From Candidatus Multivoradales bacterium (GTDB taxonomy: Bacteria; Acidobacteriota; Thermoanaerobaculia; Multivoradales; J023), in the NCBI GenBank assembly GCA_965248925.1, contig CBDFLE010000005.1, forward strand, positions 607,135 through 671,134: DNA of 64,000 nt, written 5' to 3'. The notes under the pieces were generated by a model that was not told where the DNA came from, searched no databases, and was given only the letters and a program-made list of their open reading frames with translations. Position numbers and translations under genes: made by a program. Below are positions 2,929 through 61,647 of the stretch, one piece after another (the stretch's first letter is position 1; each line of letters begins with the position of its first letter).

Positions 2929-2930
2929 AG

Positions 2931-20622: not shown

Positions 20623-20699
20623 GTCCCTATCGTCTAGCCAGGTCAGGACTCCAGCCTTTCAAGCTGGCAACACGGGTTCGAATCCCGTTGGGGATACCA
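20623..20699 (+). tRNA. tRNA-Glu (anticodon TTC)
   Basis: GTCCCTATCGTCTAGCC...GGTCAGGAC D-arm typical of tRNA-Glu. Anticodon loop cTTTCaa gives TTC. T-arm GGTTCGAATCC. CCA encoded. Confidence 0.85.
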
Positions 20700-29246: not shown

Positions 29247-29266
29247 TCAGTTCAGGGCCTCGGCGA

Positions 29267-31996: not shown

Positions 31997-32033
31997 CCAG
32001 GGTCTCGGTCCGACGGCGTCTTGGTTGGGCTCA

Positions 32034-32804
32034 TTATGGGCCAGCCGTGGTCGCAGGCGCCAGCACCAGGTAGTCGTTGCCATCGCCTCCAGTGGCGTCG
32101 GCGCCGGCCAAGTGGGCGACCTCTCGCATACCTGAGGCGGCCATCAGTCTGGCGGCTTCTGGCGGCTCGGTGAGATGGCAGTAGCGGGGACGACCTTGCT
32201 CGCCGCCCCAGCTCAGTAGATGGTCGCCAGGCTCGAGTTGGCTGCGGTCCAGCGGCTGACCCGCGAGGTGTCGCGGCCACGGCAAGATCTTGCGCCCCTG
32301 GCGTGGGTCAAGGTCAAAGCGCCACAGCGACGCGGTCAATCGCCCGCCGGGCTGGAGATACCGGCCCAGGCGCCGCAAGAGACGCGAGCGCTGCTCGAAG
32401 CCGGCAATGTGGTGGACCACGCCGAAGAGAGCGATCCAATCGAATTGGCGGCCGCTGAGCCGCTCATCAAGGTGGTTGTCCAACAAATCGAGCTGTAGCA
32501 GGTGGCAACTAGCGAAGCGCTCGGCGAGCTTGTTGCGGGCGGCGGAGAGCAGCTGCTCTGAACTGTCGCAGGCGGTGTAGTCGATCACCTGGCCGCCGAG
32601 CCGATCGGCAAGGAATGCGCCAAAGCGGCCATTGCCGCAGCCGGCATCGAACACCCGCAGCGGACGGCCGAGATCGCCGCAAAGTCGCAGCAGCTCATGC
32701 CACCCCGGCCAGGGACTCTGCCGGGTGCGGTCGAAAGCGGCGGCGTGGTGGTGGTAGAAACCGCGGTTGAGGGCTTGCAGCTGAGCGGAAGTGCGATGGT
32801 CCAT
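32034..32804 (-). CDS. Class I SAM-dependent methyltransferase
   Basis: Motif I 'VFDAGCGNGRFGAFL', motif post-I 'ACDSS', motif II/III region 'FDWIALFGVVHHI', 'LQPGGRL'. Transcribed divergently from the Elp3-like gene. The start is uncertain (32804 ATG preferred over 32882, which would overlap the Elp3 start). Confidence 0.65.
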   Translation of the reverse strand: MDHRTSAQLQALNRGFYHHHAAAFDRTRQSPWPGWHELLRLCGDLGRPLRVFDAGCGNGRFGAFLADRLGGQVIDYTACDSSEQLLSAARNKLAERFASCHLLQLDLLDNHLDERLSGRQFDWIALFGVVHHIAGFEQRSRLLRRLGRYLQPGGRLTASLWRFDLDPRQGRKILPWPRHLAGQPLDRSQLEPGDHLLSWGGEQGRPRYCHLTEPPEAARLMAASGMREVAHLAGADATGGDGNDYLVLAPATTAGP

Positions 32805-32872
32805 CTTGGCTGGATGATACCGTTGGCTGCCAAGACCTGCCGGCCGCGGCAGTAGCCAAACTCGACAGCACC

Positions 32873-34750
32873 ATGAAACCATCGTCCTTTGCCAGTTTCG
32901 ATCCGCGGCAGCACGCCGCTCAGCTAGTGCCGCTGATCACCGAACTCGAGCAAGCCAAGAGCCTGGAACGGCCACGCTACGACCGCATCCTACGGCGCTA
33001 TCCAAGAGCGGGAAAGGGAGCTTTCTCCAAGAGCGAGATCATTCGCGGCGTTCGTCGGCTGGCGGCCACGTTGGGTTGGGATGAGCCGCGGCAGGAAGAA
33101 TTTGTCGAGCGTCTCAAACGCAAACCGGTGCGCACCCAGAGTGGGGTGGCGCCGGTCAGCGTGCTGACCCGCCCCCACCCCTGTCCTGGAAAGTGTATTT
33201 TCTGTCCCAGCGACGTGCGCATGCCGAAGAGCTATCTGTCGCGCGAGCCCGGCGCCCAACGGGCCGCCCAGCATGACTTCGACCCTTATGGCCAGACCCT
33301 CGGCCGCTTGCTGGCCCTGCATCATCTCGGCCATCGGGTGGATAAGGTGGAGTTGATTGTGTTGGGTGGCACCTGGTCGTTCTATCCCCTGGCCTACCAG
33401 ATCGGCTTCATCAAACGTTGCCTGGAGGCGATGAACGACTTTGCTAGCCAGCGCGATCGGGCCGACGCCGGCTCGATTCGCGGTCGGCTGCGCTTTGCTG
33501 AATTGGTCGGCGACGTGGTCGGGCGCGAGGCCGGTAGAACCTACAATCAGCGGGTCAGCAGTTTTCTCAGCGAGCAATTGGAAGGCCAGCTGCGCGACGG
33601 CCAACTGCTCGAGCCAAGCGAAGGGGCGGAGTGGGCGGAACTGGAGGAGGTGCAACGCCAAAACGAGACGGCAGCGGTGCGTTGCGTCGGCATGGTGCTC
33701 GAGACCCGTCCCGATCACATTTCAGCGGCCGAGGTTGTTCACTTGCGTCGCTTGGGCTGCACCAAGGTGCAAATTGGCTATCAGAGCTTGGCGGACGATG
33801 TGCTGCGGGCCAATCGGCGAGGTCACGATGTCGCCGCCACCCGCCGCGCCATGGGCTTGCTGCGTCGGGCTGGTTTCAAGATCCACGCTCATTGGATGGC
33901 CAACCTTCACGGCTCCGATCCGCGGCGTGATGTCGAGGATTTCAAGCGAATTTTCGCCGACCCCGACTTTCGCCCCGACGAACTTAAAATCTACCCTTGC
34001 AGCCTGATCGAGAGCGCCGAATTGATGCGCTACTGGCAGCGCGGCGATTGGCGCCCCTACGACCGAGCGGAATTGCTCAAGGTGCTGACCCGCTGCATGC
34101 TGCTAGTGCCTCCTTGGTGCCGGGTTACGCGAGTTATTCGCGACATACCGGGAGACGACATCTGGGCCGGCAATAGGGTGACCAACTTCCGCCAAGTCCT
34201 CGAACAGGAGCTGGCGCGGCGTGGCTTGGCGAGCCGAGATATCCGCGCTCGGGAGATCGGCCGGCGGCAGCTCGGCGCGGAGCAGCCCCGGCTCGAAGTG
34301 CTGCGCTACGACACCAGCAACAGCCAGGAGATCTTCCTGCAAATGACCACCGCGGAGGGCTGGTTGTTGGGTTTTTGCCGCTTGGCGCTGCCCGGGGAAG
34401 GTTCCTTTATCGAGGAGATTCGGCACAGCGCCCTGTTGCGCGAGCTGCATGTCTATGGGGTGATGGTGGGACTCGGCGAGCAGCAAGGTGGCCGCGCCCA
34501 ACACCTCGGCCTGGGCCGGCGCTTAGTCGCCAAGGCCCGCGAGCTAGCGGCGGCTGAGGGTTTCTTGGACCTGGCGGTGATCTCGAGTATTGGCACTCGC
34601 CCCTACTACCGCACTTTGGGCTTTGTCGACGGTGAGCTATATCAACATCTGGCTCTCGCTGAGAAGCGCCTGCTGCCGCAATGCGGCGTGATAGATTCAT
34701 CGGACAACGGCACCGCTCGGGCTTCGCGGAGCGTACCGACGCTCGCTTGA
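32873..34750 (+). CDS. ELP3-family radical SAM / GNAT acetyltransferase (bacterial Elp3 homologue)
   Basis: Radical-SAM cluster motif 'CPGKCIFCP' (CX3CX2C... wait, CX4CX2C spacing: C-PGK-C-IF-C = CX3CX2C). Elp3-type N-terminal extension. Central TIM-barrel-like region ('IVLGGTWSFY'). C-terminal GNAT fold ('ELHVYGVMVGLGEQQ...GLGRRLVAKARELAAAEGFLDLAVISSIGTRPYYRTLGF'). Confidence 0.7.
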   Translation: MKPSSFASFDPRQHAAQLVPLITELEQAKSLERPRYDRILRRYPRAGKGAFSKSEIIRGVRRLAATLGWDEPRQEEFVERLKRKPVRTQSGVAPVSVLTRPHPCPGKCIFCPSDVRMPKSYLSREPGAQRAAQHDFDPYGQTLGRLLALHHLGHRVDKVELIVLGGTWSFYPLAYQIGFIKRCLEAMNDFASQRDRADAGSIRGRLRFAELVGDVVGREAGRTYNQRVSSFLSEQLEGQLRDGQLLEPSEGAEWAELEEVQRQNETAAVRCVGMVLETRPDHISAAEVVHLRRLGCTKVQIGYQSLADDVLRANRRGHDVAATRRAMGLLRRAGFKIHAHWMANLHGSDPRRDVEDFKRIFADPDFRPDELKIYPCSLIESAELMRYWQRGDWRPYDRAELLKVLTRCMLLVPPWCRVTRVIRDIPGDDIWAGNRVTNFRQVLEQELARRGLASRDIRAREIGRRQLGAEQPRLEVLRYDTSNSQEIFLQMTTAEGWLLGFCRLALPGEGSFIEEIRHSALLRELHVYGVMVGLGEQQGGRAQHLGLGRRLVAKARELAAAEGFLDLAVISSIGTRPYYRTLGFVDGELYQHLALAEKRLLPQCGVIDSSDNGTARASRSVPTLA

Positions 34751-34773
34751 CAAGGTCTTTGGAGGAGCAATCT

Positions 34774-36384
34774 TTGCGCAGAGTTGGCATCTTCGGCTGG
34801 GGTATCGTCGCCCCGCGTTCGCCCGATATTGACGCTTTCACCACCAATCTAGATTCGGCGGAGAGCTGGTTAGAGCCCTTCGATGGCTACGGTCCCGACA
34901 ATTTCCTGGTCGGTAAACCAGCCTTCGATTTCGCGGTCTACCGACCTTGGATCCTGCAACGCTTCAAGCCCAACCGCTTTTCCCAACTGGAGAGCAAGAT
35001 GGGCTTGCCGGTGCAATACGCCATCGGTACTTTCATCCAGGCTCTGGGACAGAATCCCGGCCTCGAAGACGAGCTTCGGCGGCTCGCATCACAAGTGCGA
35101 GTGTACGTCGGCACCGGCCTCGGCGATTTCGGCACCCAATACGAGCAATCGCTGGCTCTCTACCGCGCCCAACGTCGCTGGAATTGTTTCTGGGCTGATC
35201 CGAGTCGCTGCAGCGCTTTGCAGGAGTACGTCGGTGATCGGCGGTCGGTGGGGGATTTGCAGGTGCCGCCGTCGCCATCGGCGGTGTCCGCGGAGGATCG
35301 TATTGAGGCCGAGGACCAGTGGTGGGCCTTCTGGTCCGAGCGCTCCGACGGCCTTGGCCGCTATCTTGAGGAATACCGGGACATCGAATCGATCGCCGTC
35401 GAGGGTGATATCGAATCCGGCAAGCTGGCGGCGATCAAGGAAAAATCCCGCCGCCTGCGCAAACTGCAACAGCGTTGGGCCGCTCCCGAGCCACCGTGGC
35501 AGGCGGTGTCGCCGAACATCTTGTGGAATATTGACAACATTGCCGCCGCTCAGATTTCCATGTTGGGTGGTCTGACCGGTGCCGCGGTGGCGATTTCAGC
35601 CGCCTGCTCGACTTTTGGCGTCACCTTGAAATTCGGCCTCGATGCGATCCGCTCCGGCGAAGCCAAGGCGGTAGTGATTGGGGCCACCGATCCACCGCCT
35701 CACCCGCTGTCCGTCGCCGGTTTCTATCGCGCGCGAGTGATCTCCTCGGATGCCCGCCTGTCCAAACCCCTGACCGAACTGCGCGGTACCCATGTCGCTG
35801 GCGGCGCCGCTTTGTGGATTCTCGGCGATTGGGAGCACATGACTGGCCTCGGTTTCACTCCTCTGGGGATGGAGCCGCTAGCGGTGGGAGTGACTTCCGA
35901 CGCCGACCACATCATCACCCCGTCCCAGGAAGGGCCCATGGCGGCGATGCGCGAAGCTCTGGCGGGAGCCGATTTGCACGGCTCGCAATTGGTGTCGTGG
36001 GATCTGCACGCTACCGCCACCCCGGGGGACTTCAACGAAGTCGAGATGGTGCGTCAGCTGATGAGCGAGAATGTGCTGGTGACCGCCCGCAAGGGCACCT
36101 TCGGCCACGGCATGGCAGCCGGGGGAGGTTGGGAACTGACCGCTCAATATCTGGGCCACGAACGTGGCCAGGTCTTTCCCACACCACTCGCCGCGGGCGA
36201 ACTCAACGCCCAGATCGCTGAGGTCCATCGCCGCTTCACCTTCGACCGGGGTTGCCCGGCCCCGGCTGGTCCGGTGGGTAAGATGTCGATGGGAATCGGT
36301 GGCATCAACGCCTGCGTGATCTCCCGCCCGCACTCGGTCTTGGCCGAGGTGAGGGCGTTCGAAGCTGATGCTGAATCAGCCTGA
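34774..36384 (+). CDS. Beta-ketoacyl synthase, KAS I/II (FabF/FabB) family, with an about 130-aa insertion before the active-site Cys
   Basis: TTG start preceded by GGAGGAG. 'RRVGIFGWGIVAP' KAS N-terminus. Cys-His-His triad: 'SAACSTFG', 'HATATPGD', 'GHGMAAGG'. Insert region (WNCFWADPSR...RLRKLQQRW) has no counterpart in canonical FabF. Confidence 0.78.
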   Translation: MRRVGIFGWGIVAPRSPDIDAFTTNLDSAESWLEPFDGYGPDNFLVGKPAFDFAVYRPWILQRFKPNRFSQLESKMGLPVQYAIGTFIQALGQNPGLEDELRRLASQVRVYVGTGLGDFGTQYEQSLALYRAQRRWNCFWADPSRCSALQEYVGDRRSVGDLQVPPSPSAVSAEDRIEAEDQWWAFWSERSDGLGRYLEEYRDIESIAVEGDIESGKLAAIKEKSRRLRKLQQRWAAPEPPWQAVSPNILWNIDNIAAAQISMLGGLTGAAVAISAACSTFGVTLKFGLDAIRSGEAKAVVIGATDPPPHPLSVAGFYRARVISSDARLSKPLTELRGTHVAGGAALWILGDWEHMTGLGFTPLGMEPLAVGVTSDADHIITPSQEGPMAAMREALAGADLHGSQLVSWDLHATATPGDFNEVEMVRQLMSENVLVTARKGTFGHGMAAGGGWELTAQYLGHERGQVFPTPLAAGELNAQIAEVHRRFTFDRGCPAPAGPVGKMSMGIGGINACVISRPHSVLAEVRAFEADAESA

Positions 36385-37846
36385 GCTGCGTTTCTCTGAA
36401 CGCCAAGCGCAGCAGATCTGTTGGCTGCGGGCGGTAGAGGAAGCCGACCAGGACGGTTTGTTGATCCCCTTGAAGCTACGCTGGCAGGCTGCTGATGAGA
36501 GTCGCCCCGCGGTGATCGACGCTTCTGCCGCGAGTTGGCTAGCGCAGCGCGCAGGGCAGCTCCTCGATCACCTTGGCCACACCCTGCCGGGGCAGCAGGC
36601 GACAATCGATTGGAGTCGTCCAGGTCGTGGCCTGGCGGCTCCGGTCTTGTTGGTCGCTCTGCTTCTCGGTGCTTCCAGTAATGCCTTGGGACCCAGTCGA
36701 CAGGTCAATGTTCTGGCGCTGCCGCTGCTCGGTTTGATCACTTGGAATGTGCTGACGCTGATTCTGGGGGTGGCTGTTCGCTGGCTGCCACAAAGCCGTG
36801 GGGTTGGTTTGGCGGGCCGGCTGGCCAAGCAGTTGCAGCGCTTCGCCAGTCGTTGCCTGGCCCGTCTGCCGCTGCCAGCGGGCGCTGCTGGCAAAGACCG
36901 CAGCCAGCTCTGGCGCCACGCTCGGGCTGCATTCACTGTCAACTGGCTGCCCTTGCAGTTGCCTTTAGTGGTGATTCGCTGCCGGCGTCTACTGCATCTA
37001 TCGGCGCTGGCCCTGGTGGCTGGTGCCGTGGCGGGGATGTACCTGCGGGGCATGGCCTTGGCCTATCGACCCAGCTTTGAAAGCACCTTTCTCAGTGCCG
37101 CCACTGTCGACCGGGTGCTGGCGGTGATTCTGGCGCCGGCGGCAGCTCTTCTAGGGCGCCAAGTTCCTTCGGTGGCCGGCCTCGGTGGTACCCACCAACA
37201 GCTGGCCAATCAGTGGATTCACCTGTGGGCGCTGACCGCGGTGATCTTCGTTCTGGGGCCGCGCTTGCTCCTGGTGGGCGGCGACAGCCTGGCGCTGTGG
37301 CGGCGCAGTCGGGGTTTGCGACTGGTGCTGCCGCAGGCGTATTTGCAGCGGCTGCTGGGAGGTAGTAAGCGGAGTTTGATCGAGCTGCTGCCCTATAGCC
37401 ATCAGCCCTCCTCCCAGGCTATTGAGCGGCTCACGCTACTGCTGATGGACCATGCTGGAGCGCGGGCTGAAATTCGCCTCGCAGCGTCCCTGGACTACGG
37501 CGCCGAGGCTCCGGCCGATGAACCGGGCGCGGCGCTGAGGGTGCTGTGGTTTAGTCTCGCCCAGACTCCTGAAGTCGAAGTTCAGGGAGAACTCTTGCAG
37601 CAGCAGCGCCGTGCCGACGGTAGCCGGCAGCTGTTGCTGATAGTGGACGGCACGACCTATCGACAGCGCCTGGGTAGGGCCGCCACGGCGGGCCGCCGCT
37701 TACAAGAACGGCGGCGGGCTTGGGATCTGCTGGCGGCGGAGTACCAGCTCCAAGTCTTGCACCTGCAGCTCGATGAAGATCTCGGCGAGGCGCAGCTAGC
37801 GGCTTTGCGGCATTCGCTGTGGCCCGCCGCCGAGAGTACGCCCTGA
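36368..37846 (+). CDS. Polytopic membrane protein with Leu/Arg-rich C-terminal region, DUF2868-like
   Basis: About 6 TM helices in the middle, followed by a long charged alpha-helical C-terminus. Placed immediately upstream of a P-loop GTPase, the pairing I associate with DUF2868/DUF3482 operons. Family call is from memory, without an HMM. Confidence 0.45.
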   Translation: MLNQPELRFSERQAQQICWLRAVEEADQDGLLIPLKLRWQAADESRPAVIDASAASWLAQRAGQLLDHLGHTLPGQQATIDWSRPGRGLAAPVLLVALLLGASSNALGPSRQVNVLALPLLGLITWNVLTLILGVAVRWLPQSRGVGLAGRLAKQLQRFASRCLARLPLPAGAAGKDRSQLWRHARAAFTVNWLPLQLPLVVIRCRRLLHLSALALVAGAVAGMYLRGMALAYRPSFESTFLSAATVDRVLAVILAPAAALLGRQVPSVAGLGGTHQQLANQWIHLWALTAVIFVLGPRLLLVGGDSLALWRRSRGLRLVLPQAYLQRLLGGSKRSLIELLPYSHQPSSQAIERLTLLLMDHAGARAEIRLAASLDYGAEAPADEPGAALRVLWFSLAQTPEVEVQGELLQQQRRADGSRQLLLIVDGTTYRQRLGRAATAGRRLQERRRAWDLLAAEYQLQVLHLQLDEDLGEAQLAALRHSLWPAAESTP

Positions 37847-37859
37847 GGCAGGAGCGACG

Positions 37860-39389
37860 ATGCAGCCAACCCAGCAACAGCGTGAGTCCAGCGAGCACTT
37901 ACCGACGGTGACTCTCAGTCTGATTTCCCACACCAATGTTGGCAAGACCACACTTGTGCGTACTCTGCTGCGCCGCGATGTCGGTCAGGTGCTGGACCGA
38001 GCCCACGTCACTGAGGTCAGCGAAGTCTATGAGTTGGCGCGCTGCGACAGCGGCGTGCTGCGCCTCTGGGACACCCCCGGCTTTGGCGACTCGGTGCGTC
38101 TCCTGCGGCGTTTACAGCGCCATGATCGCCCGCTGATGTGGTTTGTGCAGCAACTGTGGGACCGGATCACCGATCGACCCCTGTGGTGCGGTCAACAGGC
38201 GGTGTTGAACGTCCGGGACGAGGCCGATTTGGTACTCTACTTGGTTAACGCCGCGGAAGAGCCGCAGGCAGCTGGCTACGTCGCGCCCGAGCTCGATCTG
38301 CTGTCTTGGATGGATCGACCAGTGGTGTTGGTGCTCAACCAAGTAGGAGAAGCGGAGCTGAGCAGCGAGCTGCGGCGCCAACGGCTGGAGAGCTGGCGGC
38401 GGCACGTCGCCCGCTGGCCGATGGTGCGCGAGGTGGTCGAACTCGATGCCTTCAGTCGCTGCTGGGTGCAAGAGAATCTCTTGTTCGATCGCTTGCAGCC
38501 GCACCTGGGGGCAGCCAAGCAAGAGCTGTTCGGCGAGCTGTCGGCGTTGTGGCTGCGGCGCAATCTGGCGGTGTTCGAGCAAGCGGTCCGAGCCGTGGCC
38601 GAATATCTGGCGCTCACCGCCGAGGATTGCGAGTCTTTGCCTCCAGGCTCGACCGGCTTGAAGCGCATCTTCAGCGATGGCGAAGCAATGGCGGAAGACA
38701 AGCAGCGAGCGATCGAAAGCCTCGGCCAAAGACTGGTGACGCGCACCAGTCAGCTAATGCAGGAGCTGCTCGACGCCCATCAGCTGGAGGGTGAGGCGGC
38801 GATGGAGATCGAGAGCCAACTGGGTGCCTTCTCTGTTGCTGGCGAAGAGGGGCTCGACACCGAACGCGGCGCATTCTTGGGAGGTGTGCTCAGCGGTGCC
38901 CTCGGTGGCCTGGCAGCCGATTTGCTGGCTGGCGGACTCACTTTTGGTGGCGGAGTGCTCGCCGGGGCTATCCTGGGTGCCCTCGGCGGCGCCGGCTTGA
39001 GCCGTGGCTATCGCCTGGTCAAAGGAACCGGTCCGCCGGTGATCGGTTGGTCAGCGGCATTTCTCGAACGCCTGGTCGCCCAAGCGCTGGTGCGCTACCT
39101 GGCGGTGGCGCATTTTGGCCGTGGCCGGGGAGAGTTCGAGGCCCTCGAAGAGCCGCAGCGCTGGGGCGTCGCGGTGGCGGCGGCGATCACCATCCACGAT
39201 GCCGAATGGCAAGCCCTGTGGCAGCGCTTCGGCGAGCGAAAAACCAAGCACCCGGAGCCAGTGGCGCGCTTGCAGTCTCTGCTCGATGCCACCGCGCGGC
39301 AGATTCTCGCCACCGGCTATCCTGAGGCGGCGGCCTGGCTCGGCATCGCCGCCGCTGGTTCGGCCCCAAGCGGCTCCGGCGAAGGTTAG
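37860..39389 (+). CDS. P-loop GTPase (MMR_HSR1/YfjP-like G domain) with C-terminal glycine-zipper membrane segment, DUF3482-like
   Basis: G1 'ISHTNVGKTTL', G3 'DTPGFGD', G4-like 'VLNQ'. C-terminal 'GGVLSGALGGLAADLLAGGLTFGGGVLAGAILGALGGAG' glycine zipper. Confidence 0.6.
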   Translation: MQPTQQQRESSEHLPTVTLSLISHTNVGKTTLVRTLLRRDVGQVLDRAHVTEVSEVYELARCDSGVLRLWDTPGFGDSVRLLRRLQRHDRPLMWFVQQLWDRITDRPLWCGQQAVLNVRDEADLVLYLVNAAEEPQAAGYVAPELDLLSWMDRPVVLVLNQVGEAELSSELRRQRLESWRRHVARWPMVREVVELDAFSRCWVQENLLFDRLQPHLGAAKQELFGELSALWLRRNLAVFEQAVRAVAEYLALTAEDCESLPPGSTGLKRIFSDGEAMAEDKQRAIESLGQRLVTRTSQLMQELLDAHQLEGEAAMEIESQLGAFSVAGEEGLDTERGAFLGGVLSGALGGLAADLLAGGLTFGGGVLAGAILGALGGAGLSRGYRLVKGTGPPVIGWSAAFLERLVAQALVRYLAVAHFGRGRGEFEALEEPQRWGVAVAAAITIHDAEWQALWQRFGERKTKHPEPVARLQSLLDATARQILATGYPEAAAWLGIAAAGSAPSGSGEG

Positions 39390-39390
39390 G

Positions 39391-40659
39391 ATGCTGCCGA
39401 TGCAAGTCTTTTTCACCAACCTGGGTTGCAAGCTCAATCAAGCCGAAGTCGACAAGATGGCGCGGCGCTTTGTCGCCGCCGGCCACCGCTTGGCGCCCCG
39501 TTTAGAGGAGGCGGAGCTGCATGTGGTCAATTCTTGCTCCGTCACCCACTTGGCGGCTCGCGACTCGCGCAAGCTGGCTCGCCGAGGCGGCCGCTTGGTG
39601 GCCGGTTTGCGGACCGTTCTGACCGGCTGTTACGCCACCGGCGCCGCGGACGAAGCCGCTGCTTTGGTAGGAGTAGATCTGGTGGTGACCAATGAACAGA
39701 AAGAGCAGCTGTTGGAGAGAGTTCACGCGGCCTTTCCAGAGATCGTACCGCCGGCGCGAGAGGCGTTGCCAGTGCCCTATGTGCCGCTGGATTTTGCTCA
39801 TGCCCGGGCGCTGGTCAAAGTCGAGGACGGCTGCAATATGCGCTGTTCCTTCTGCATCATCCCCTTCCTGCGGGGGCGCCAGCGTAGCCGGCCTTTGGCC
39901 GAGATCGTCGACGAGGTGCAGGCGCTCAGCGCCGGGGGCTATGCTGAAGTGGTGATTACCGGGGTGCAGATCTCCGAGTATGACGACCAAGGCCGGCGAC
40001 TCTATGATCTGACCCGCGCCCTGCTCGCCCAGCCGGCCGGCGCGCGGTTGCGGCTGACCTCGCTTGCGCCGTGGAAGTTTGACCACCGGCTGCTGGCGCT
40101 GTGGGCCGATCGGCGCCTCTGCCGGCACTTCCACATATCGCTGCAAAGTGGCTCGAGCCGGACCTTGCGGCGTATGCGTCGCCCCTATTCGGCTGCCCAG
40201 TATGCAGAGTTGGTGGAACGCATTCGGGAGCAGATTCCAGGGGTAGCGATCACCACCGATGTGATCGTCGGCTTTCCGGGCGAAAGCGACGAAGAGTTCG
40301 CCGACAGCCTGGCCTTTGTTGGACGCATGGGCTTTGCCAGGCCCCATCTTTTCACCTATTCCGAACGCCCAGGTACCGCCGCCGCCGAGCTTCCTGATGC
40401 CCTACCCCCGGCCATCAAGAAAGAGCGCATGGCGGCGTTCAGACAAGTAGCCCTGCGATCGGATTTAGCTTTTCGCCAGAGCCAGCTCGGCGCCACCCTG
40501 GGGGTGGTCTGGGAGGAGCGGCGCGCTGGGCGGTGGAGCGGTCTGAGCGACAACTACTTGCGGCTATTCGCCGAGTCGACCGCAGATCTCAGCGGGCGCC
40601 AGGGACGGGCGCGGCTGCTCGAGATCGAGGGTCCGGGCGTCACTGCCGAGATCGTATAG
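39391..40659 (+). CDS. mtaB: tRNA (N6-threonylcarbamoyladenosine) methylthiotransferase, MtaB-type radical SAM enzyme
   Basis: N-terminal MTTase domain 'VFFTNLGCKLNQAEVD...VVNSCSVT'. Radical SAM 'CNMRCSFCIIP'. C-terminal TRAM-like region. The ATG at 39391 immediately follows the stop of the upstream GTPase gene. Confidence 0.8.
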   Translation: MLPMQVFFTNLGCKLNQAEVDKMARRFVAAGHRLAPRLEEAELHVVNSCSVTHLAARDSRKLARRGGRLVAGLRTVLTGCYATGAADEAAALVGVDLVVTNEQKEQLLERVHAAFPEIVPPAREALPVPYVPLDFAHARALVKVEDGCNMRCSFCIIPFLRGRQRSRPLAEIVDEVQALSAGGYAEVVITGVQISEYDDQGRRLYDLTRALLAQPAGARLRLTSLAPWKFDHRLLALWADRRLCRHFHISLQSGSSRTLRRMRRPYSAAQYAELVERIREQIPGVAITTDVIVGFPGESDEEFADSLAFVGRMGFARPHLFTYSERPGTAAAELPDALPPAIKKERMAAFRQVALRSDLAFRQSQLGATLGVVWEERRAGRWSGLSDNYLRLFAESTADLSGRQGRARLLEIEGPGVTAEIV

Positions 40660-40668
40660 TCTGCGCCC

Positions 40669-41079
40669 ATGCCGCCCTCTACAGATCACTTACAACCCGC
40701 GACCCATCTCAGAATCGATCCACGGTTCTCTGGACGGCTGGTGAAGTTGGGTCCCGGCGAGGCCGAAGTGGCTCTTGAGACGGTGCCGGAAATGCTCGCC
40801 GACGACCAGGGCCTGGTGCATGGCGGCTTCATTTTTTGCCTGGCAGACTACGCCGCGATGCTGGCGATTAACCAAGCGAATGTGGTGCTTGGCCAGGTAG
40901 AGATGCGATTCTTGCGGCCGGTGAGAGTGGGGGAAACGGTGCTGGCGAAAGCCGTTCTGGCGGGTCGGGAAGGTAAGAAGATGAGGGTCGAGGTCACCGT
41001 CTTGCGGGGTGAAGAGGAGGTAGCGGCGGGGCAGCTAACCTGTTTTGTCCCTGGCCGGCATGTCTTGGCAAAAAACTGA
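40669..41079 (+). CDS. Hotdog-fold thioesterase (PaaI/YbgC-like)
   Basis: 'LVHGGFIFCLADYAAMLAIN' matches the PaaI-family active-site helix. 136 aa. Confidence 0.72.
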   Translation: MPPSTDHLQPATHLRIDPRFSGRLVKLGPGEAEVALETVPEMLADDQGLVHGGFIFCLADYAAMLAINQANVVLGQVEMRFLRPVRVGETVLAKAVLAGREGKKMRVEVTVLRGEEEVAAGQLTCFVPGRHVLAKN

Positions 41080-41104
41080 TCACTGTTGCTGGAGAAGCTA
41101 GAGC

Positions 41105-42856
41105 ATGAGTCAACCATTGAGCGGCGGCGATCTGCTGGCTGAAGTCTTGGTGCAACAAGGTGTCGAGCTGCTCTTCACCCTCTGCGGTGGGCATATTTCA
41201 CCTATTTTGGTTAGCGCCAAGCAGCGTGGTATTCGCATCATCGACGTGCGCGATGAAGCCTCAGCGGCGTTTGCCGCCGATGCCGTTTCGCGCCTGACCG
41301 GCGCTGTCGGGGTGGCGGCGGTCACCGCTGGGCCGGGGGTCACCAACACCCTGACGGCGGTCAAGAACGCGCAGTTGGCACAGTCGCCGATGGTGCTCCT
41401 GGGCGGCGCTACGGCCACCATCCTCAAAGGGCGCGGAGCGTTGCAAGATATCGATCAGATGGCCTTGATCAAACCGCACGTCAAATGGGCGACGGCGGTG
41501 ACTCGGGTCAACCAGCTAGTGCCAGCTCTCGAGCGGGCTTTCCTCGAGGCACGGCGTGGCGTGCCGGGGCCGGTGTTCGTCGAGGTGCCGGTCGATTTGC
41601 TCTACCAACAAGACGTGGTGCGGCAGATTTATGGTGTCGGTCCGCAGGCGGCGGCGCCCAAGAGTCGCAGCGAGTCGATGTTGCGTTGGTATTTGACCCG
41701 GCATCTGCGCAAGATCTTCGGCGGCGCCGAAGACAATCGGGCCAGCGAACCGCAGGCAGTGCAGTCGCCACGGGCCACCGAGGGTCAACTGCGGCACATC
41801 GCCGACGCCATCGCCAAGGCCCAGCAGCCGGTTATTTTGGTGGGCAGCCAGGCGGTAGCCGCGGCCTCGAGAGTCGAAGAAGTGGCGGCCGCCCTCGCGG
41901 CGTTGGAGATTCCCTGTTTCCTGAGCGGCATGGCCCGAGGTCTGCTGGGGGCTGGCCATCGCCTACACCTACGCCATCAACGACGAGCGGCGCTGCAGGA
42001 GGCCGACCTCATCTTGCTGCTGGGCGTCCCCTGCGACTTCCGCCTCGACTATGGCCGTAGCCTGTCGCGGCGGGCCAAGCTGGTGTCGATCAACCTCAGC
42101 GCTGAAGACTTGAAGAAAAACCGCAAACCTCAAATCGGCGTGCTCGCCGAGCCCGGAGACTCGATCATTCGCCTGGCCGCAGTGGTCGAGTCTGGTGCCG
42201 AGCGCTGGGCGTCGTGGTTGGCGTCGCTGCGGCAGCGCGACCTGGAGCGTGAAGCCGACATTGATCGGCGGGCGGCGGTGGCGGCTGGCGGTGGCATTAA
42301 CCCCCTACGCCTGTTTCGTCAGCTCGATGCGGTGCTGGAAGACGATAGCGTGCTGGTGGCGGACGGCGGCGATTTCGTCGCCACGGCTTCCTACACCTTG
42401 CGTCCGCGGGGCCCCTTGCGGTGGCTCGATCCGGGGGTTTTTGGTACCCTGGGGGTAGGCGGTGGCTTCGCGCTGGGGGCCAAGCTGACCCGCCCCGAGG
42501 CCGAGGTATGGCTGCTTTGGGGGGATGGATCCTCAGCCTACACGTTGGCTGAATTTGACACTTACGTGCGCCATCAGGTGCCGGTGATTGCGGTGGTGGG
42601 CAACGACGCTAGTTGGATGCAGATCGCCCGTGAACAAGTCGAGGTGTTAGGGGATTCCTGCGCCACCGATCTACGCCACACCGACTATCACCGGGTGGCC
42701 GAAGGTTATGGCGGCAAAGGGCTGCTGCTCGACCGCGAAGAGGATATTCCGCGAGTGCTCGCCGAAGCCAAGGCCGCGGCGCGTCAGGGCATACCTGTGT
42801 TGGTGAACGTGATTCTCGGCAAGACAGATTTCCGCAAGGGCTCGATCTCGATGTAG
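41105..42856 (+). CDS. Thiamine-diphosphate-dependent enzyme of the acetolactate-synthase / 2-hydroxyacyl-CoA-lyase / oxalyl-CoA-decarboxylase family
   Basis: N-terminal Pyr domain '[11 protein letters not shown]...[29 protein letters not shown]'. Central domain. C-terminal PP domain with '[14 protein letters not shown]...VGNDASW' ThDP/Mg motif (GDG-X24-NN-like). Confidence 0.78.
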
Positions 42857-42987
42857 GAGTGAGTCGCACGGCGCCTCCCTGTGCATGTTTCTTGCACCAA
42901 GTAGCGCCGGGATCGAGTGAAAACTTCCTGCCGCCATAGAGCTTTCCTGCTGTCTGGCCGGCAACTGGTCAAAAAGGACCCAACTAC

Positions 42988-44067
42988 ATGATTAGACAGA
43001 GCTTCCACCGACACCTGCCAGCGCACCACGGTGGCGCTAGCGCTGCCTTTCTGGTGCTGCTGCTGGTGATGGGTGCCGTTACGGCAGGTGCTCAGAGCGT
43101 CAAAGAGCAGCTACGGCGCGAGGCCGAGCGCGCCAAGGCAGATGCTTCCGGGTCGCGGACCGTGGATCCAACGCAGTGGCCCGCGGTGGTGGCTAAGGTC
43201 AACGGCGAGGAGATCCACCGTATCGAATTGATGACCCAGGCCGACTTGATGCGCAGTCAAGTCGTCAGATCCGGAGGCAGCGATCCGGGGGACTCGACCG
43301 CCTTCTACCGCGAAGTGCTCAGCGGTTTGGTGGGCGAGGTGTTGGTGTTTCAGCATGCTCGGGCCACCGACAGCGACGCCACCGCAGAGGAGATTGCGCA
43401 GTCCATCGCCGGCATGCGTAGCCGCTTCGATAATCAAGCAGTTTTCGAAGCCGAGCTCGAGCGCCAAGGCACCAACAGTGAACGGTTGCAGCAGCAGGTT
43501 CATCGGGCGCTGTCGATCCAGAAGTTCATCGATCAGGTGCTGGCACCGCAGATCACTATCTCGGAGGAGGCCAAGCGGGCTTTCTACGCCCAGAACAAGG
43601 ATCGCCTACAGATCCCTGAGCGACGCCGAGTGCGCCACATCATGCTGCTCGCCAGCCGCGATGCTGCCGAGGATATTCGCGCACGAGCCAATGGCCGCGC
43701 CAAGGCGCTACGGGCGCGACTCGGTGGCGAAGCGGATTTCGCCGCGATGGCGCGGGAGCATAGCGAGGACAAGAGCAGCAGTGAAGACGGTGGTGAGTTG
43801 GGATGGGTCGTCCGCAGTGGCCAGCGCCCAGAATTCGAGGCCGCGGCTTTTTCGCTGCGAGAGCCCGGCGAGATCAGCGGCGTCGTCGAGACAGCCGCCG
43901 GTTTCCACATCTTGCAGTTGGTCGAGTCGCAGCCTGCTCGGGCAAGAAGTTATGAGGAGACCGAGGAACAAATCGGCAAGCACCTCAAAGACGGCGAGAT
44001 GCAGCGCGCCGTACAGCGCCAGGTCGAGACCTTACGCGGCCGAGCGCAGATCGAGATCGGCATCTAG
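42988..44067 (+). CDS. SurA/PrsA-like periplasmic peptidyl-prolyl cis-trans isomerase (parvulin domain)
   Basis: Signal/TM N-terminus. SurA-like N-terminal chaperone region. Parvulin domain 'RVRHIMLL...GGELGWVVRSGQRPEFEAAAFSL...GFHILQL'. Confidence 0.72.
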   Translation: MIRQSFHRHLPAHHGGASAAFLVLLLVMGAVTAGAQSVKEQLRREAERAKADASGSRTVDPTQWPAVVAKVNGEEIHRIELMTQADLMRSQVVRSGGSDPGDSTAFYREVLSGLVGEVLVFQHARATDSDATAEEIAQSIAGMRSRFDNQAVFEAELERQGTNSERLQQQVHRALSIQKFIDQVLAPQITISEEAKRAFYAQNKDRLQIPERRRVRHIMLLASRDAAEDIRARANGRAKALRARLGGEADFAAMAREHSEDKSSSEDGGELGWVVRSGQRPEFEAAAFSLREPGEISGVVETAAGFHILQLVESQPARARSYEETEEQIGKHLKDGEMQRAVQRQVETLRGRAQIEIGI

Positions 44068-46223
44068 GAGCCGGGTGACTCTGCTGGCGGCGGCGCTCGG
44101 CGAACCGTCAGCGGAGCTCGGCAGGTGATGCCGCCGTTGCGGGCCGAGAACCAAGCAACGTTCTCGTACAGCGGATCCACCTCGAGCAAGTAGCTCCCTG
44201 CTTCCTCTGGCGCGGTCACGCTCAGCCAGGTGGTTAGCTCAGCACCCGCGGCGACCGCCTGGGAGAGATCAGTGCGTTGTCCCTCGCCGGCCAGCACCTC
44301 GCCGTCAGCGCGCAGCCAGTGGTAGCTCATGCGGACTCGGGCGGCGCCGCGGGCTGGCCAGGAATAGTCGCTGATATTGCGCAGCCGGGCTAGGGCCTGC
44401 AGCTGACTACCGGCGCTGACTTCAGCAGGTGCGCTACAGCTCAGCCACTGCAAATGGAATAGATCTCGTTCGAGTTCGTCGGCGGCGCCCAACCAAGTCA
44501 ACTCGGCGCCGACGGCAAAGGTGGCGGCCAACGGTGGCGCCGCCGCGGCATCTCGCCAACCGGGCCTCTCACCCGAACCAGCGCTGAGCTCCAAGCGATA
44601 GAGATAGAGTGCGCTGCCAGCGGCCGTGCGCAGTTCACGCCCCGTCCCCAGCGCCAGTCGCAGCCGTTGCGTGTCGCTGTTACCACCAGCCAGCTGCTGC
44701 TGATCCACTGACGAAGCCAGGGTAGTAGTGCTACCTTGCCGCGCCCAGCTGCGCAAGTTGATGGCGATGTCGGTCAGCCGACGGGGGCTTTCCAACCAAA
44801 GTTCATGCGGTCGCGGTCCGGCGATAGAGAGCAGCCGATCTCTGACCAGCAAGACATCTTTCTTGGCGAACCACAGCCGGCCCTCGGGCAGCTGCTGGGC
44901 CTGCCAGCCGGGTAGTTCGGCAAGGCGCCAGATCTCGAGCGGCAACCAGCGCCAGGGGAAAGCTCGGGTGTGGGCGGCAAGGGGGCCACCTGGGGCGGCA
45001 CTGCCAAAGGGTTGAAGGGTTAGGGTGAGTAGTAGAGGAGCAGCCAAAGCAAAGCCCGCCAAAGTCGCCACTTGCATTCGGCGGCTCTGACCTAGCGGAC
45101 CGGCAAAGGCAAAGAACAGGGGTAAGGCCGCCAACCACCGCGGCTCGCCAAGTTCAGCCGCCAATTCCCTCTCCTCAATCTGCCCGGCGAGCAGCAGGCC
45201 ATAGGCCAGCAACGCCAGCAGCAGACGCCCTCGTCGTCCGGGCGCCGAACCTAGGCCAGCCAAACCCAAGAGTAGGGCGGGGATAACGAATGGGAAGTAG
45301 GGTAGGAGTCCCCGGTAGCGGCCTGCCAAAAACGTCACCAATTGGTGACGCGGCGGCGCGGCCGGCACCTTCTCCAGGCTTCTGGCTGACGCTAAATCCA
45401 AGGCTGTGGGTACCGTCGGACTAGAGACTCGCACGCGCAGTGCCGCGTCGCTGCTCACGGGCCAGGCGCGGCCGTTCCAGGCCAAGCTCAGCAAGGCGAC
45501 CAATGCCAGAGTGGCGCCAAGTCCCAACAGCCAGCGGGCCGCCAACCGCGGGCCGCCGAGCAACAGCAACTCGACCCACAACAAGGCGCCGACCACCGCC
45601 GCCAAGGGCTGGTGGATGATCGCCAGACCGAGGACCGCACCACTCAGCACCAGCCCTCCAGGGCGTGTTCGGCGACGACCGGCGGCGGGCCACGCCAGGA
45701 ACAACGCCAGCGCCACCGCTGCCAGAACCAGGATCTCGGCCCGATAGCGGAAAACGTAGGGCCAAGGCAAACCCAAAGCCAAAGCGCCGCCGGCAAAGAG
45801 CAGAGCCCCCCCGCCCAGCTTCCCGTCCTGGCTCAGTAGGCGGGCGCAGCAGTACCAGGCAAGTAGCCACAGCAGAAGATTCAGCAGCAACGGCCCGGCG
45901 GCCCCTAGCGCGGCCCAAAAAGGAGCCGCCAAAAGGGCGTAGGGCAGAGCTTGGGCGTAGGTTGGCTCCCCTTGCAGCCCGCCTTGCGGGGCAACGGCGA
46001 GGGCAATCTGCACTTCGCCGGCGTAGGGGAAGTTGGCATAGAGGGCTTCCAGGTCTGCAACATCCAGGTGCAGATCGGCTGTGTCCGCTAAGCTAGCTAT
46101 CTGCAGCAACACCGTGGGTTCGGTGCCGTCCAGGCTCAACGGCCGGCCGGGCTTCTCTAGGGTCAGAGGAAAGAGCAACAGGGCGGCGGCGATAGCCGCC
46201 AGGGTAAGGCGGGTAGTAGACAC
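44064..46223 (-). CDS. Large polytopic membrane protein (about 10+ TM helices) with C-terminal soluble domain; possible GT-C-fold glycosyltransferase-like protein
   Basis: Long hydrophobic N-terminal two-thirds with aromatic-rich loops ('FWAALGAAGPLLLNLLLWLLAWYCC'), then a C-terminal soluble region. The start is uncertain (GTG at 46223 abutting the upstream CorC gene, or an overlapping ATG at 46280). Confidence 0.4.
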   Translation of the reverse strand: MSTTRLTLAAIAAALLLFPLTLEKPGRPLSLDGTEPTVLLQIASLADTADLHLDVADLEALYANFPYAGEVQIALAVAPQGGLQGEPTYAQALPYALLAAPFWAALGAAGPLLLNLLLWLLAWYCCARLLSQDGKLGGGALLFAGGALALGLPWPYVFRYRAEILVLAAVALALFLAWPAAGRRRTRPGGLVLSGAVLGLAIIHQPLAAVVGALLWVELLLLGGPRLAARWLLGLGATLALVALLSLAWNGRAWPVSSDAALRVRVSSPTVPTALDLASARSLEKVPAAPPRHQLVTFLAGRYRGLLPYFPFVIPALLLGLAGLGSAPGRRGRLLLALLAYGLLLAGQIEERELAAELGEPRWLAALPLFFAFAGPLGQSRRMQVATLAGFALAAPLLLTLTLQPFGSAAPGGPLAAHTRAFPWRWLPLEIWRLAELPGWQAQQLPEGRLWFAKKDVLLVRDRLLSIAGPRPHELWLESPRRLTDIAINLRSWARQGSTTTLASSVDQQQLAGGNSDTQRLRLALGTGRELRTAAGSALYLYRLELSAGSGERPGWRDAAAAPPLAATFAVGAELTWLGAADELERDLFHLQWLSCSAPAEVSAGSQLQALARLRNISDYSWPARGAARVRMSYHWLRADGEVLAGEGQRTDLSQAVAAGAELTTWLSVTAPEEAGSYLLEVDPLYENVAWFSARNGGITCRAPLTVRRAPPPAESPGS

Positions 46224-46225
46224 CT

Positions 46226-47332
46226 TCAAGAGCGCTCTGGATCCGGTGGGGTGTCCCGCTTCTCGACATCGTGGCGCCACCTACGCATGCTCTCCAAGCG
46301 GCGTTCGCGCAACTTGATCGCCTCGGCTCGGAGATCGATCACCCGATCCGACTCGTCGAGAATCTCTACTCCCAAGGTGGTCTCGACCAAGTCTTCCAAG
46401 GTCACCAGGCCGCTGATGCCACCGTATTCGTCGGTGATCAGAGCAAGATGCTCGCGAGTTTCGATCAAGCGACGCATCACCCGACCGATCACCTGGCCTT
46501 CTTGGATAAAGAGAGCCTTGCGCAGGAATTTTGTGATCGGAGTCTGGGGATCCTGGTCGTTGGCTGCCGCGAGCAGCACATCCCGTTGCAATACGAACCC
46601 CGTCACGTTGTCGTGGTTGTCTTTGTACAGTGGAATGCGGGAGAAAACCAACGTGTCTTCAGCGGCCAGAAAATCCGCGATAGTGGCCTCTGCCGGCAAC
46701 ATGCCGATCACCGTCCGCGGGGTCATGATGTCCTCGACCTTGATCTCGCCGAGGCGCAGAACGTTGCTCATCAACTTCGAATCTGCCGCTGGCAGTGAGC
46801 CTTCTCGAGCCGCCAAATTGACCATCGCCGCCAACTCGGCGCGAGAAATGCTGGAGGATTCTTCCTTGCGCGCTAGCGAGCGGGTGATGAACCGCAGCAC
46901 CCAGAGGGCAGGTTTGAGCAGTATGGTGAGCCAATGGGTGACCCGCGCCACAAAGCCGACCAGCTGCGAGGCGTACACCGTGCCGAGGGTCTTGGGGATG
47001 ATCTCGGTCACTACCAACATCAGCAAAGTCAGCAGGCCGCCGAACAATCCCACCCAGGCGTCACCGTAGATCGCTGCAACTTGGGCGCCCGCAAGCGCCG
47101 CGCCACTGGTATGAGATACCGTGTTCAGGGTCAGGATCGCGCTGATCGCATCGTCCAGGCGATCTTGTTTGAGTTCGAACAATAGGGCCGCGCCGCGATC
47201 TCCCTTGCCCCGGCGGTGCTCGAGTTCCGGCAATCTGGAGGACAGTAGTGTTGCCTCCAAGACCGAGCACAGAAACGACAGCGTCAGGGTCGCCGCCACG
47301 GTGGCGACCAAGATCATCAGGGTCAAACTCAT
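46226..47332 (-). CDS. CNNM/CorC/TlyC-family protein (DUF21 membrane domain + CBS pair + CorC_HlyC)
   Basis: N-terminal 4-TM DUF21. CBS pair ('IMTPRTVIGMLP...GFVLQRDVL', 'ALITDEYGGISGLVTLEDLVE'). C-terminal transporter-associated domain. Confidence 0.85.
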   Translation of the reverse strand: MSLTLMILVATVAATLTLSFLCSVLEATLLSSRLPELEHRRGKGDRGAALLFELKQDRLDDAISAILTLNTVSHTSGAALAGAQVAAIYGDAWVGLFGGLLTLLMLVVTEIIPKTLGTVYASQLVGFVARVTHWLTILLKPALWVLRFITRSLARKEESSSISRAELAAMVNLAAREGSLPAADSKLMSNVLRLGEIKVEDIMTPRTVIGMLPAEATIADFLAAEDTLVFSRIPLYKDNHDNVTGFVLQRDVLLAAANDQDPQTPITKFLRKALFIQEGQVIGRVMRRLIETREHLALITDEYGGISGLVTLEDLVETTLGVEILDESDRVIDLRAEAIKLRERRLESMRRWRHDVEKRDTPPDPERS

Positions 47333-50394: not shown

Positions 50395-50614
50395 GAGCTT
50401 CCTCCTCAGAAAGCCGTGGTTTGCCCCAGAAAGTGAGCTGAGCAACACATGTTAGCAATCTCTGACTTGCCACGGCGATGCAGGAGATTTCTCTCGCTCT
50501 GCCGTTTCACTCGCCAGCGAAGCGCGCCTCCGCTGAATCAGCCGCGGCGTCGGGAACACATTCGCTGGGCAAAGAATTGGAACCAAAACGAGGCAAAGAC
50601 GGTCCAATATCTAG

Positions 50615-51100: not shown

Positions 51101-51261
51101 CTTGCCAACTGAAGTTGCCGCTAGGAGATCGCCAAGGAAACAGCGTCCTTGGGTTGGCGGTAGGCTCACCAGGAGCGGCGCCACGAGATTTCTTCATCAG
51201 GGGGGCAAGATTGCTAACACTACCCAGGCGAGGGTCCAGGAGGAGTCAATTCCTGGCTTGG

Positions 51262-53148: not shown

Positions 53149-53153
53149 CGGGT

Positions 53154-55932: not shown

Positions 55933-55936
55933 GGCT

Positions 55937-57667: not shown

Positions 57668-57717
57668 CGGAGTTCCTCCGTTGTTTTCTAGTGCAAGAAG
57701 TTTCTAACCAGCGGCAA

Positions 57718-61627: not shown

Positions 61628-61647
61628 CAGTGGATCCTCACCACGGC

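Follow-up and report, generated by a model that had tools for sequence, protein, structure and literature searches.

The window analyzed here, a 64,000-nucleotide stretch of contig CBDFLE010000005.1 from the acidobacterial genome of Candidatus Multivoradales bacterium, carries a row of nine genes at positions 32034–44067. A gene for a stand-alone Elp3 lies head-to-head with a gene for a class-I S-adenosylmethionine (SAM)-dependent methyltransferase (MT), and is followed on its own strand by genes for a ketosynthase (KAS), a membrane protein, a GTPase, an MtaB-type methylthiotransferase, a hotdog-fold protein, a thiamine diphosphate (ThDP) enzyme and a PpiC-type isomerase. Our comparison of loci across bacteria suggests that the row is probably a lineage-specific succession of independent units rather than one pathway, and that it includes MT and Elp3 as a two-gene module for modification of the wobble uridine (U34) of tRNA. 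An earlier note on this DNA had drawn a parallel between this gene pair and the eukaryotic Elp3-to-Trm9 pathway, and had further proposed that the adjoining genes either supply Elp3 with an acyl donor or form a cryptic biosynthetic cluster.

The methyltransferase and Elp3 genes form a pair conserved across bacteria

The pair consists of the following features:

32034–32804, minus strand: Trm9-like class-I SAM methyltransferase (MT), 256 amino acids (aa); Pfam Methyltransf_11/12/25
32805–32872: divergent MT–Elp3 intergenic region, 68 nt, presumed shared promoter region; start codons from homologue alignments
32873–34750, plus strand: Elp3, stand-alone, 625 aa, radical-SAM and GNAT/KAT domains; TIGR01211

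The MT start was placed at the second methionine (32804) and not at 32882, based on an alignment of 20 homologues. No sigma-70 consensus was detected in the intergenic region (32805–32872).

To follow the pair through other genomes, we assembled 83 MT loci: three homologues on long contigs, and 80 loci that the MT alignment retrieved from metagenomes. Loci with an Elp3 match, or with 600 nt or more of sequence upstream, were considered informative (71 of the 83). In 61 of these 71 loci (86%), Elp3 is encoded divergently no more than 1.5 kb from MT, at a median distance of ~45 nt. Elp3 was placed otherwise in two loci, once at 2.3 kb and once downstream on the same strand. Two of the three long-contig homologues, one of them in a metagenome-assembled genome (MAG) of the Myxococcota, have a divergent Radical_SAM/Radical_SAM_C (Elp3-type) gene ~44 nt upstream; the third is without Elp3. 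The MT loci span a GC content of 31–76%, and their Elp3s are 42–62% identical to that of the window. The MT family is large, with 1,839 clusters at 50% identity in a full-library profile search (E ≤ 1e-30).

That the metagenome loci are bacterial was judged from the families of the flanking genes, most of which, in eight of the longer loci including low-GC ones, are typical of bacteria (signal peptidase I (LepB), LonA, BipA, FabH, RecQ and BTAD). The named MAGs carrying the pair belong to the Acidobacteriota and Myxococcota. No third gene is conserved with MT and Elp3: after removal of shadow open reading frames (ORFs), the largest independent family occurred in 7 of the 83 loci. Four further ORF clusters (3–5 and 7) that had appeared as additional neighbors were rejected, as they consisted of shadow ORFs overlapping the MT or Elp3 genes in high-GC loci. 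The other genes of the window (KAS, membrane protein, GTPase, MtaB, hotdog and ThDP) were found at none of the 83 MT loci. Thus, MT and Elp3 are a pair kept together head-to-head in many different bacteria.

Two side observations concern the flanks of the pair. A RecQ-family helicase gene adjoins Elp3 in low-GC loci (L101, 5757–7475; L117, ~1889–3739; L121, 2184–3608), which may reflect lineage synteny or a weak association. On the other side, relatives of the window carry a PlsC-type acyltransferase gene directly downstream of MT. In the window (28488–32083, minus strand), a phosphoenolpyruvate carboxylase gene (29267 to ~31996) is inserted between MT and the PlsC-type gene. The 252-aa gene downstream of MT in relatives had been a candidate SpoU methylase (as in L083). 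This was ruled out by its Pfam assignment as a PlsC-type acyltransferase gene, which also disposed of a possible three-gene island for tRNA modification.

Trm9 is the closest solved relative of the methyltransferase

Trm9 is the closest solved relative of the MT family by both sequence profile and fold, in each case by a small margin. The best match in the Protein Data Bank (PDB) for a 20-member MT family profile was Yarrowia Trm9 (5cm2_Z; E 3.2e-13), with which the single MT sequence also aligns over nearly its full length. The AlphaFold2 model of MT (pLDDT 91.9) has Rossmann topology, and Foldseek again ranked 5cm2_Z first (E 9e-12; TM-score 0.74 on the target), with 21% identity in the structural alignment. 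The SAM-binding motif I, (L/F)D-x-GCGNGR, is conserved in the family and aligns with DIGCGNGK of Trm9, with D53 invariant.

Mutagenesis has shown that Trm9 activity needs R29, D72, H116, W145, W168, R241, Y243 and N271, with a contribution from H115 (PMC4678810). In alignments to 5cm2_Z, the Trm9 residues R29, D72, H115, H116, W145 and R241 correspond to R28, D53, H131, H132, W161 and R207 of MT, all of which are invariant in the family. A near-invariant tryptophan, W199, is located 6 residues from the aligned position of Trm9 W168. The invariant N243, which opens the last strand and falls outside the HMMER alignment, is probably the match to N271. Similarity to CmoM, which is likewise a class-I methyltransferase forming a methyl ester on a U34 side chain (5-methoxycarbonylmethoxyuridine, mcmo5U), is weak, with 27.5 bits against NF008264 (cut-off 366) and 30 bits against PDB 8joz. 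A crude regular-expression motif scan, which says little about the genome as a whole, detected no Trm112-like ORF in the window.

The window encodes a long, Zn-less form of Elp3

Elp3 scored 475.9 bits against TIGR01211 (cut-off 350), residues 72–588 aligning with model positions 46–515 of 522. The closest solved structure is that of Dehalococcoides mccartyi Elp3 (DmcElp3, 5l7j; E 4.5e-101, in the stretches 84–190 and 255–593), and the enzyme of Methanocaldococcus infernus (6ia8) matched with E 4.6e-98. Like the window protein, DmcElp3 (5l7j/5l7l/6ia6) and M. infernus Elp3 are stand-alone enzymes with the same domain order and with CPGKCI(F/Y)CP and KAT motifs. The Fe-S motif PCPGKCIFCP (residues 102–111; PCPGKCIYCP in DmcElp3) is also kept in the MT-linked Elp3s of other loci, and the acetyl-coenzyme A (acetyl-CoA) motif (Q/R-x-x-G-x-G/A) is present as AQHLGLGRRL at 542–551 (AQHRGLGRKL in DmcElp3). 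The match to Pfam Acetyltransf_10 is weak.

Two additions set the window protein apart from DmcElp3, an N-terminal extension of ~83 aa and, within the radical-SAM domain (191–254), an insert of ~64 aa. It also lacks the CxCxxC Zn motif, the stretch at ~452–463 reading ASRDIRARE instead of KCRCIRCRE. The archaeal enzyme has a comparable extension, and part of that in the window Elp3 aligns with the archaeal N-terminus. Most MT-linked Elp3s (L084–L164) are likewise long and Zn-less, with radical-SAM inserts of 50–86 aa; the short Zn-type form is kept in three MT-linked loci (L147, L153 and L160). The Zn site is also absent from eukaryotic Elp3s. On this comparison, loss of the site counts against membership of the bacterial/archaeal subgroup and not against membership of the Elp3 family, because eukaryotic Elp3s are without it too. 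If the prediction for the pair is true, these proteins would define a distinct long, Zn-less form of Elp3.

The pair is predicted to be a bacterial counterpart of Elp3–Trm9

The Elp3-to-Trm9 pathway is textbook knowledge for eukaryotes and accepted for archaea. By analogy, Elp3 would carboxymethylate U34 at C5 with the help of SAM and acetyl-CoA, yielding 5-carboxymethyluridine (cm5U), as suggested by its family membership and cofactor motifs. The Trm9-like MT would then methyl-esterify cm5U to 5-methoxycarbonylmethyluridine (mcm5U34), as suggested by its similarity to Trm9, its active-site residues and the conservation of the pair. Trm9 R29 and H116 are proposed to position the cm5U carboxylate (PMC4678810), and the MT dyad R28/H132 would act on the carboxylate in the same manner. 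Formation of cm5U34 from SAM and acetyl-CoA by archaeal and eukaryotic Elp3 is established (PMC6367351, PMC13315578), and a clustering of the two genes, Elp3 and Trm9, has been reported from Sulfolobus solfataricus (PMC6144793). The Elp3–Trm9 parallel drawn in the earlier note has gained support: MT is closest to Trm9 by profile and Foldseek, and a divergent Elp3 accompanies it in 61 of 71 informative loci. The most likely product of the pair is mcm5U34, and this would be a bacterial instance of a known pathway.

Compared with the eukaryotic and archaeal Elp3–Trm9(–Trm112) systems, which make mcm5U34 or its 2-thio derivative mcm5s2U34, the window pair has in common the Fe-S and acetyl-CoA motifs of Elp3, equivalents of the Trm9 active-site residues R29, H115, H116, W145 and R241, and the gene linkage. 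It differs in its bacterial setting, in the cysteine at the position of Trm9 Y243 and in an identity to yeast-type Trm9 of only ~21%, and no other Elongator subunits and no Trm112 were seen nearby. Bacterial MnmE/MnmG also target C5 of the wobble uridine (forming 5-carboxymethylaminomethyl- and 5-aminomethyluridine, cmnm5U/nm5U) but differ in chemistry and enzymes, and MT lies far below the CmoM cut-off.

According to a 2020 review, Elp3 in bacteria was limited to one clade, Dehalococcoides, and xcm5U-type nucleosides in bacteria were without direct evidence (PMC7663514); a 2026 paper mentions Elp3 in “numerous bacteria”, with no further detail (PMC13315578). No description of a bacterial Elp3/Trm9-like pair was found in the literature searched, the coverage of which was incomplete, so that this absence is not proof. 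We predict the MT–Elp3 pair to be a widespread bacterial counterpart of the eukaryotic and archaeal system. If so, mcm5U-type wobble modification would not be confined to eukaryotes and archaea, and bacteria would offer simple study systems that are free of Elongator and possibly of Trm112.

Several observations weigh against this assignment of MT. Trm9 leads the next methyltransferase by a small margin in the profile search (52.7 versus 41.8 bits), and in Foldseek a generic class-I methyltransferase follows closely (E 1.4e-11 versus 9e-12). The position of Trm9 Y243 is occupied by an invariant cysteine in the MT family (RYCH versus RYYH). An adjacent Elp3 is absent from 10 of the 71 informative MT loci, and Elp3 stands without an adjacent MT in 5 of 14 testable loci of the Thermoanaerobaculia clade described below. 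The MT might thus act not as a cm5U methyl-esterase but on another tRNA or rRNA site or on a small molecule, the product of Elp3 then staying cm5U or being converted to, for example, an amide of the 5-carbamoylmethyluridine (ncm5U) type. The remote similarity to yeast-type Trm9 (~21%), the nearly equal scores of generic methyltransferases, the replaced tyrosine and the lack of a Trm112-like partner in the window would fit such a substrate. We nevertheless regard it as unlikely, given that Trm9 ranks first by two independent methods, that six functional Trm9 residues have invariant equivalents, that the pair is kept in 86% of informative loci from diverse bacteria with no other conserved partner, and that clustering of Elp3 and Trm9 genes was already reported in Sulfolobus (PMC6144793).

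Two tRNAs that classically carry xm5(s2)U34, tRNA-Lys(UUU) (11475–11550, plus strand) and tRNA-Glu(UUC) (20623–20699, plus strand), are encoded in the window and are candidate substrates; their presence there is probably a coincidence. A Mutator-family transposase gene (12035–13387, minus strand) adjoins tRNA-Lys.

The remaining genes of the row are closely spaced

Downstream of Elp3, the row continues with the following genes:

34774–36384, plus strand: insert-bearing KAS I/II-like ketosynthase (KAS), 536 aa; Pfam ketoacyl-synt N and C domains
36368–37846, plus strand: DUF2868-like membrane protein, 492 aa; orthologue evidence
37860–39389, plus strand: GTPase with DUF3482 domain, 509 aa; PF01926 MMR_HSR1 and PF11981
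39391–40659, plus strand: MtaB-type radical-SAM methylthiotransferase; TIGR01579, UPF0004 and Radical_SAM
40669–41079, plus strand: small hotdog-fold (4HBT/PaaI-like) protein; PF03061
41105–42856, plus strand: ThDP enzyme of the 2-hydroxyacyl-CoA lyase (HACL) / oxalyl-CoA decarboxylase / acetolactate synthase (ALS) superfamily; TPP_enzyme N, M and C
42988–44067, plus strand: SurA-N/PpiC-type peptidyl-prolyl isomerase with an N-terminal signal-like segment; Rotamase and SurA_N_3

The ORF list and family scans confirmed all nine genes at the coordinates given in the earlier note, including the PpiC/SurA-like isomerase, which falls within its range but was unnamed in its title. Its two tRNA-modification radical-SAM enzymes, Elp3 and MtaB, both exceed their family cut-offs (TIGR01211 and TIGR01579). 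The description of the spacing as operon-like also stands, with corrected values: the true gaps along the plus-strand row are 23, −17, 13, 1, 9, 25 and 131 nt, the earlier values having each been one too high (start minus end). On this spacing, the row is probably co-transcribed. The KAS gene starts with TTG, preceded by a GGAGGAG Shine-Dalgarno sequence.

The arrangement is real, and its mere existence carries no statistical weight. Eight co-directional genes in a row are unremarkable in this DNA, as a minus-strand run of at least 10 genes is found at 49681–62856 of the same window. The base composition is uniform with the flanks (62–65% GC), and consensus scans found promoter- and terminator-like sites in 31900–44300 to be no more common than in shuffled sequence, so that these sites are uninformative. 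An ORF of 738 aa with a high content of Ala, Leu and Gly and without a Pfam match (44064–46280, minus strand) is convergent with the PpiC-like gene.

The ketosynthase is a widely conserved family outside the Elp3 module

The KAS scored far below every NCBIfam ketosynthase cut-off, with 115.7 bits against FabF (TIGR03150; cut-off 493.75) and 51 bits against FabB (cut-off 630), and only its C-terminal two-thirds aligned. The earlier note had named a simple FabF paralogue as the outcome that would count against its proposal; the FabF score does not bear this out. FabB/FabF (KAS I/II) are nonetheless the nearest folds (15–20% identity), having in common the thiolase fold, the Cys-His-His triad and the active-site lysine. 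The KAS differs from them by a helical insert (~residues 119–235; ~115–130 aa, after the first beta-alpha unit and before the active-site Cys) and by forming its own family across two phyla. Its close homologues are 63–72% identical among the top 120 matches, and identity across Acidobacteriota (Thermoanaerobaculia) and Myxococcota is 60–72%. C278, H412 and H445, together with the active-site K440, are invariant in 14 KAS sequences. Exact look-ups of the KAS protein of the window and of one ThDP homologue matched no record.

We used the alignment of these 14 homologues to retrieve 80 KAS loci from one-genome-per-species contigs, with 10-kb flanks, and searched them with the window proteins by tblastn. 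Only 17 of the 80 loci share window neighbors (L001–L016 and L018). These are Acidobacteriota/Thermoanaerobaculia MAGs, the closest relatives of the window. In the other 63, including further Thermoanaerobaculia, Corallococcus, Myxococcus, Archangium, Hyalangium and others, the KAS is without any window neighbor. In one annotated locus (L081) it is flanked by opposite-strand genes and is monocistronic, and ORF clustering revealed no KAS-neighbor family common beyond the Myxococcaceae. The sequences thus mark the KAS as a distinct and strongly constrained family, independent and widely conserved, that stands outside the Elp3 module. It would form a self-standing unit with its Cys-His-His triad intact, and is most likely a housekeeping acyl-acyl carrier protein (ACP) condensing enzyme. 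A role like that of the FabY-type initiation enzymes of Pseudomonas, which have a KAS I/II domain, or of another housekeeping condensing enzyme may be considered as a candidate lead.

A homologue of the window-type SurA-N/PpiC gene directly follows KAS in six Thermoanaerobaculia loci (L022, L033, L034, L049, L055 and L073), at a distance of ~270–450 nt. Because of this position directly 3' of KAS, an older KAS–PpiC adjacency is suspected, and the window genes between the two may be insertions into it.

Within the clade of 17, Elp3 is upstream of KAS in 16 loci, and MT adjoins Elp3 in 9 of 14 testable loci. The membrane protein follows KAS in 14 of 16 testable loci, the GTPase comes after the membrane protein in 10 of 12, and MtaB after the GTPase in 7 of the 10 that could be tested. 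L009 has KAS without Elp3 despite 5.7 kb of upstream sequence, and L013 and L016 lack the membrane protein after KAS with 10 and 5.2 kb available downstream. The block thus breaks on both sides of KAS, as (MT–Elp3), KAS and (DUF2868-like–GTPase–MtaB). The thioesterase and ThDP genes follow MtaB in none of the 17 loci, and no hotdog or ThDP homologue was detected by tblastn in any of the 80. Gene calls in two close relatives (L165 and L166) show the block stopping after MtaB, followed by opposite-strand genes. Because the neighbors are unconserved outside the clade and the order breaks inside it, the eleven-kb “cluster” is an ordinary lineage-specific gene order and not one conserved functional unit.

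Certain features of the clade speak against fully independent units. The adjacency of Elp3 and KAS in 16 of 17 loci persists with differing outer flanks (L165 and L166). A clade-specific operon with a degree of common regulation or function would be compatible with this adjacency. In such an operon (Elp3–KAS–DUF2868-like–GTPase–MtaB), the KAS, here with the hotdog or ThDP enzyme, could supply or process an acyl unit used by Elp3, or the GTPase pair could aid the two radical-SAM tRNA enzymes. The recurrence of the five-gene order in L165 and L166 although their outer flanks differ, the very short or overlapping gaps in the window (−17 to 25 nt) and the action of both Elp3 and MtaB on the anticodon loop are consistent with this idea. 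However, none of the 63 further KAS loci contains Elp3, and none of the 83 MT loci (~60 with Elp3) contains KAS, the GTPase pair or MtaB. In addition, the order is interrupted within the clade (L009, L013 and L016), the Elp3–KAS gap is ~100–115 nt in the relatives L165/L166 and not 23 nt, the hotdog and ThDP genes are never included, and Elp3 keeps a canonical acetyl-CoA motif. We therefore judge a true clade operon of this kind to be improbable.

A more specific version, in which the KAS delivers an ACP- or CoA-bound non-acetyl acyl unit for a non-canonical xm5U made by Elp3, with the GTPase pair and MtaB in the same operon, appears very improbable, because outside the clade the Elp3–KAS link is lost whichever side it is followed from. 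A clade-specific link between Elp3 and KAS is a slight residual possibility. Accordingly, the proposal in the earlier note that KAS, thioesterase and ThDP enzyme form an acyl-donor pathway for Elp3 did not hold up: none of the 80 KAS loci has a hotdog or ThDP homologue, and KAS is without these neighbors in 63.

The membrane protein, GTPase and MtaB adjoin in one clade

In the reading of the row as independent units, a third unit would comprise the DUF2868-like membrane protein and the DUF3482 GTPase, with MtaB adjoining in this clade. The GTPase matched PF11981 (DUF3482) with 59.2 bits (cut-off 29.2), and its orthologues, 52–56% identical, are found in the same place in 10 loci of the clade. 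The pair resembles the DUF2868/GTPase-DUF3482 pairs in Pfam/NCBI annotation, in which a membrane protein precedes an MMR_HSR1 GTPase; the gap in the window is 13 nt. It differs from these in that the 492-aa membrane protein itself has no Pfam or NCBIfam match, and none to DUF2868 even at E ≤ 1; only the L165 orthologue matched PF11067 (DUF2868), weakly. No functional literature on DUF2868 or DUF3482 proteins was found.

MtaB passed the TIGR01579 cut-off narrowly (362.6 versus 357.05), and remained below those of MiaB (236.7 versus 355.3) and RimO (220.2 versus 356.95). No separate TRAM match was detected at E ≤ 0.01, the TIGR01579 alignment reaching model position 403 of 416. The protein is predicted to convert N6-threonylcarbamoyladenosine at position 37 (t6A37) to its 2-methylthio derivative (ms2t6A37). 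The anticodon-modification theme that the earlier note saw in MtaB holds for a single clade, where 7 of the 10 testable loci have MtaB after the GTPase, and does not extend to the MT loci (0 of 83). As a speculation, Elp3, MT and MtaB might all act on tRNA-Lys(UUU), which would give it a eukaryote-like anticodon loop with mcm5(s2)U34 and ms2t6A37.

The hotdog, ThDP and PpiC genes belong to other contexts

The last three genes would form a fourth unit, belonging to another synteny block and lying next to the third unit only here. The hotdog protein scored 58.3 against PaaI (TIGR02286; cut-off 118.9), and its closest solved relative is the uncharacterized protein PH1136 (1ixl). The ThDP enzyme was below all NCBIfam cut-offs (PRK05858, 405.4 versus 587; HACL NF058623, 313.3 versus 600). 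Its best PDB matches were the actinobacterial 2-hydroxyacyl-CoA lyases 7pt1–7pt4 (247 bits), with which, as with oxalyl-CoA decarboxylase, it has the three-domain ThDP architecture in common. It is set apart from the HACL family by its score under the HACL cut-off, and its neighborhood varies between relatives.

Orthologues of the ThDP enzyme are 60–70% identical in Acidobacteriota. On a 12-Mb chromosome (L167) the orthologue follows a Peptidase_S8 gene, and on a 9.3-Mb contig (L168) the order is Aldedh, ThDP, a SurA/PpiC-like gene (7821–8804) and a 721-aa protein. Neither locus contains a hotdog gene or a KAS. The ThDP and PpiC genes thus belong to a separate synteny block, which lies next to MtaB in this genome only. 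The PpiC/SurA-like isomerase is unrelated to tRNA modification.

The co-directional occurrence of KAS-type, hotdog and HACL/ALS-family ThDP genes within 8 kb had suggested a cryptic acyl or acyloin biosynthetic cluster, a reading that is now scarcely credible: the trio is never together in the 80 KAS loci or the two ThDP orthologue loci; no carrier protein, acyltransferase, adenylation/loading or tailoring enzyme, transporter or regulator is present among the nine genes; gaps of ≤25 nt leave no room for a hidden ORF and gaps of ≤131 nt none for an ACP gene; the KAS and ThDP orthologues are 60–72% identical phylum-wide and mostly lie among unrelated genes, as is typical of core metabolism rather than of accessory clusters; and the composition matches the flanks (62–65% GC). 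The Elp3/KAS/hotdog/ThDP combination, the recurrence of which the earlier note had proposed as a check, does not recur in the 80 KAS and 83 MT loci. Both the acyl-donor and the cluster readings fail because the neighbors are unconserved across related genomes, the outcome that the earlier note itself had named as deciding against them. For annotation, tight co-directional spacing should not be equated with a pathway, and the KAS, thioesterase and ThDP genes should not be labelled a biosynthetic cluster.

The gene order in L168 resembles the order ThDP, PpiC and 738-aa ORF in the window. The 721-aa protein of L168, which has no Pfam match, occupies a position comparable to that of the 738-aa ORF.

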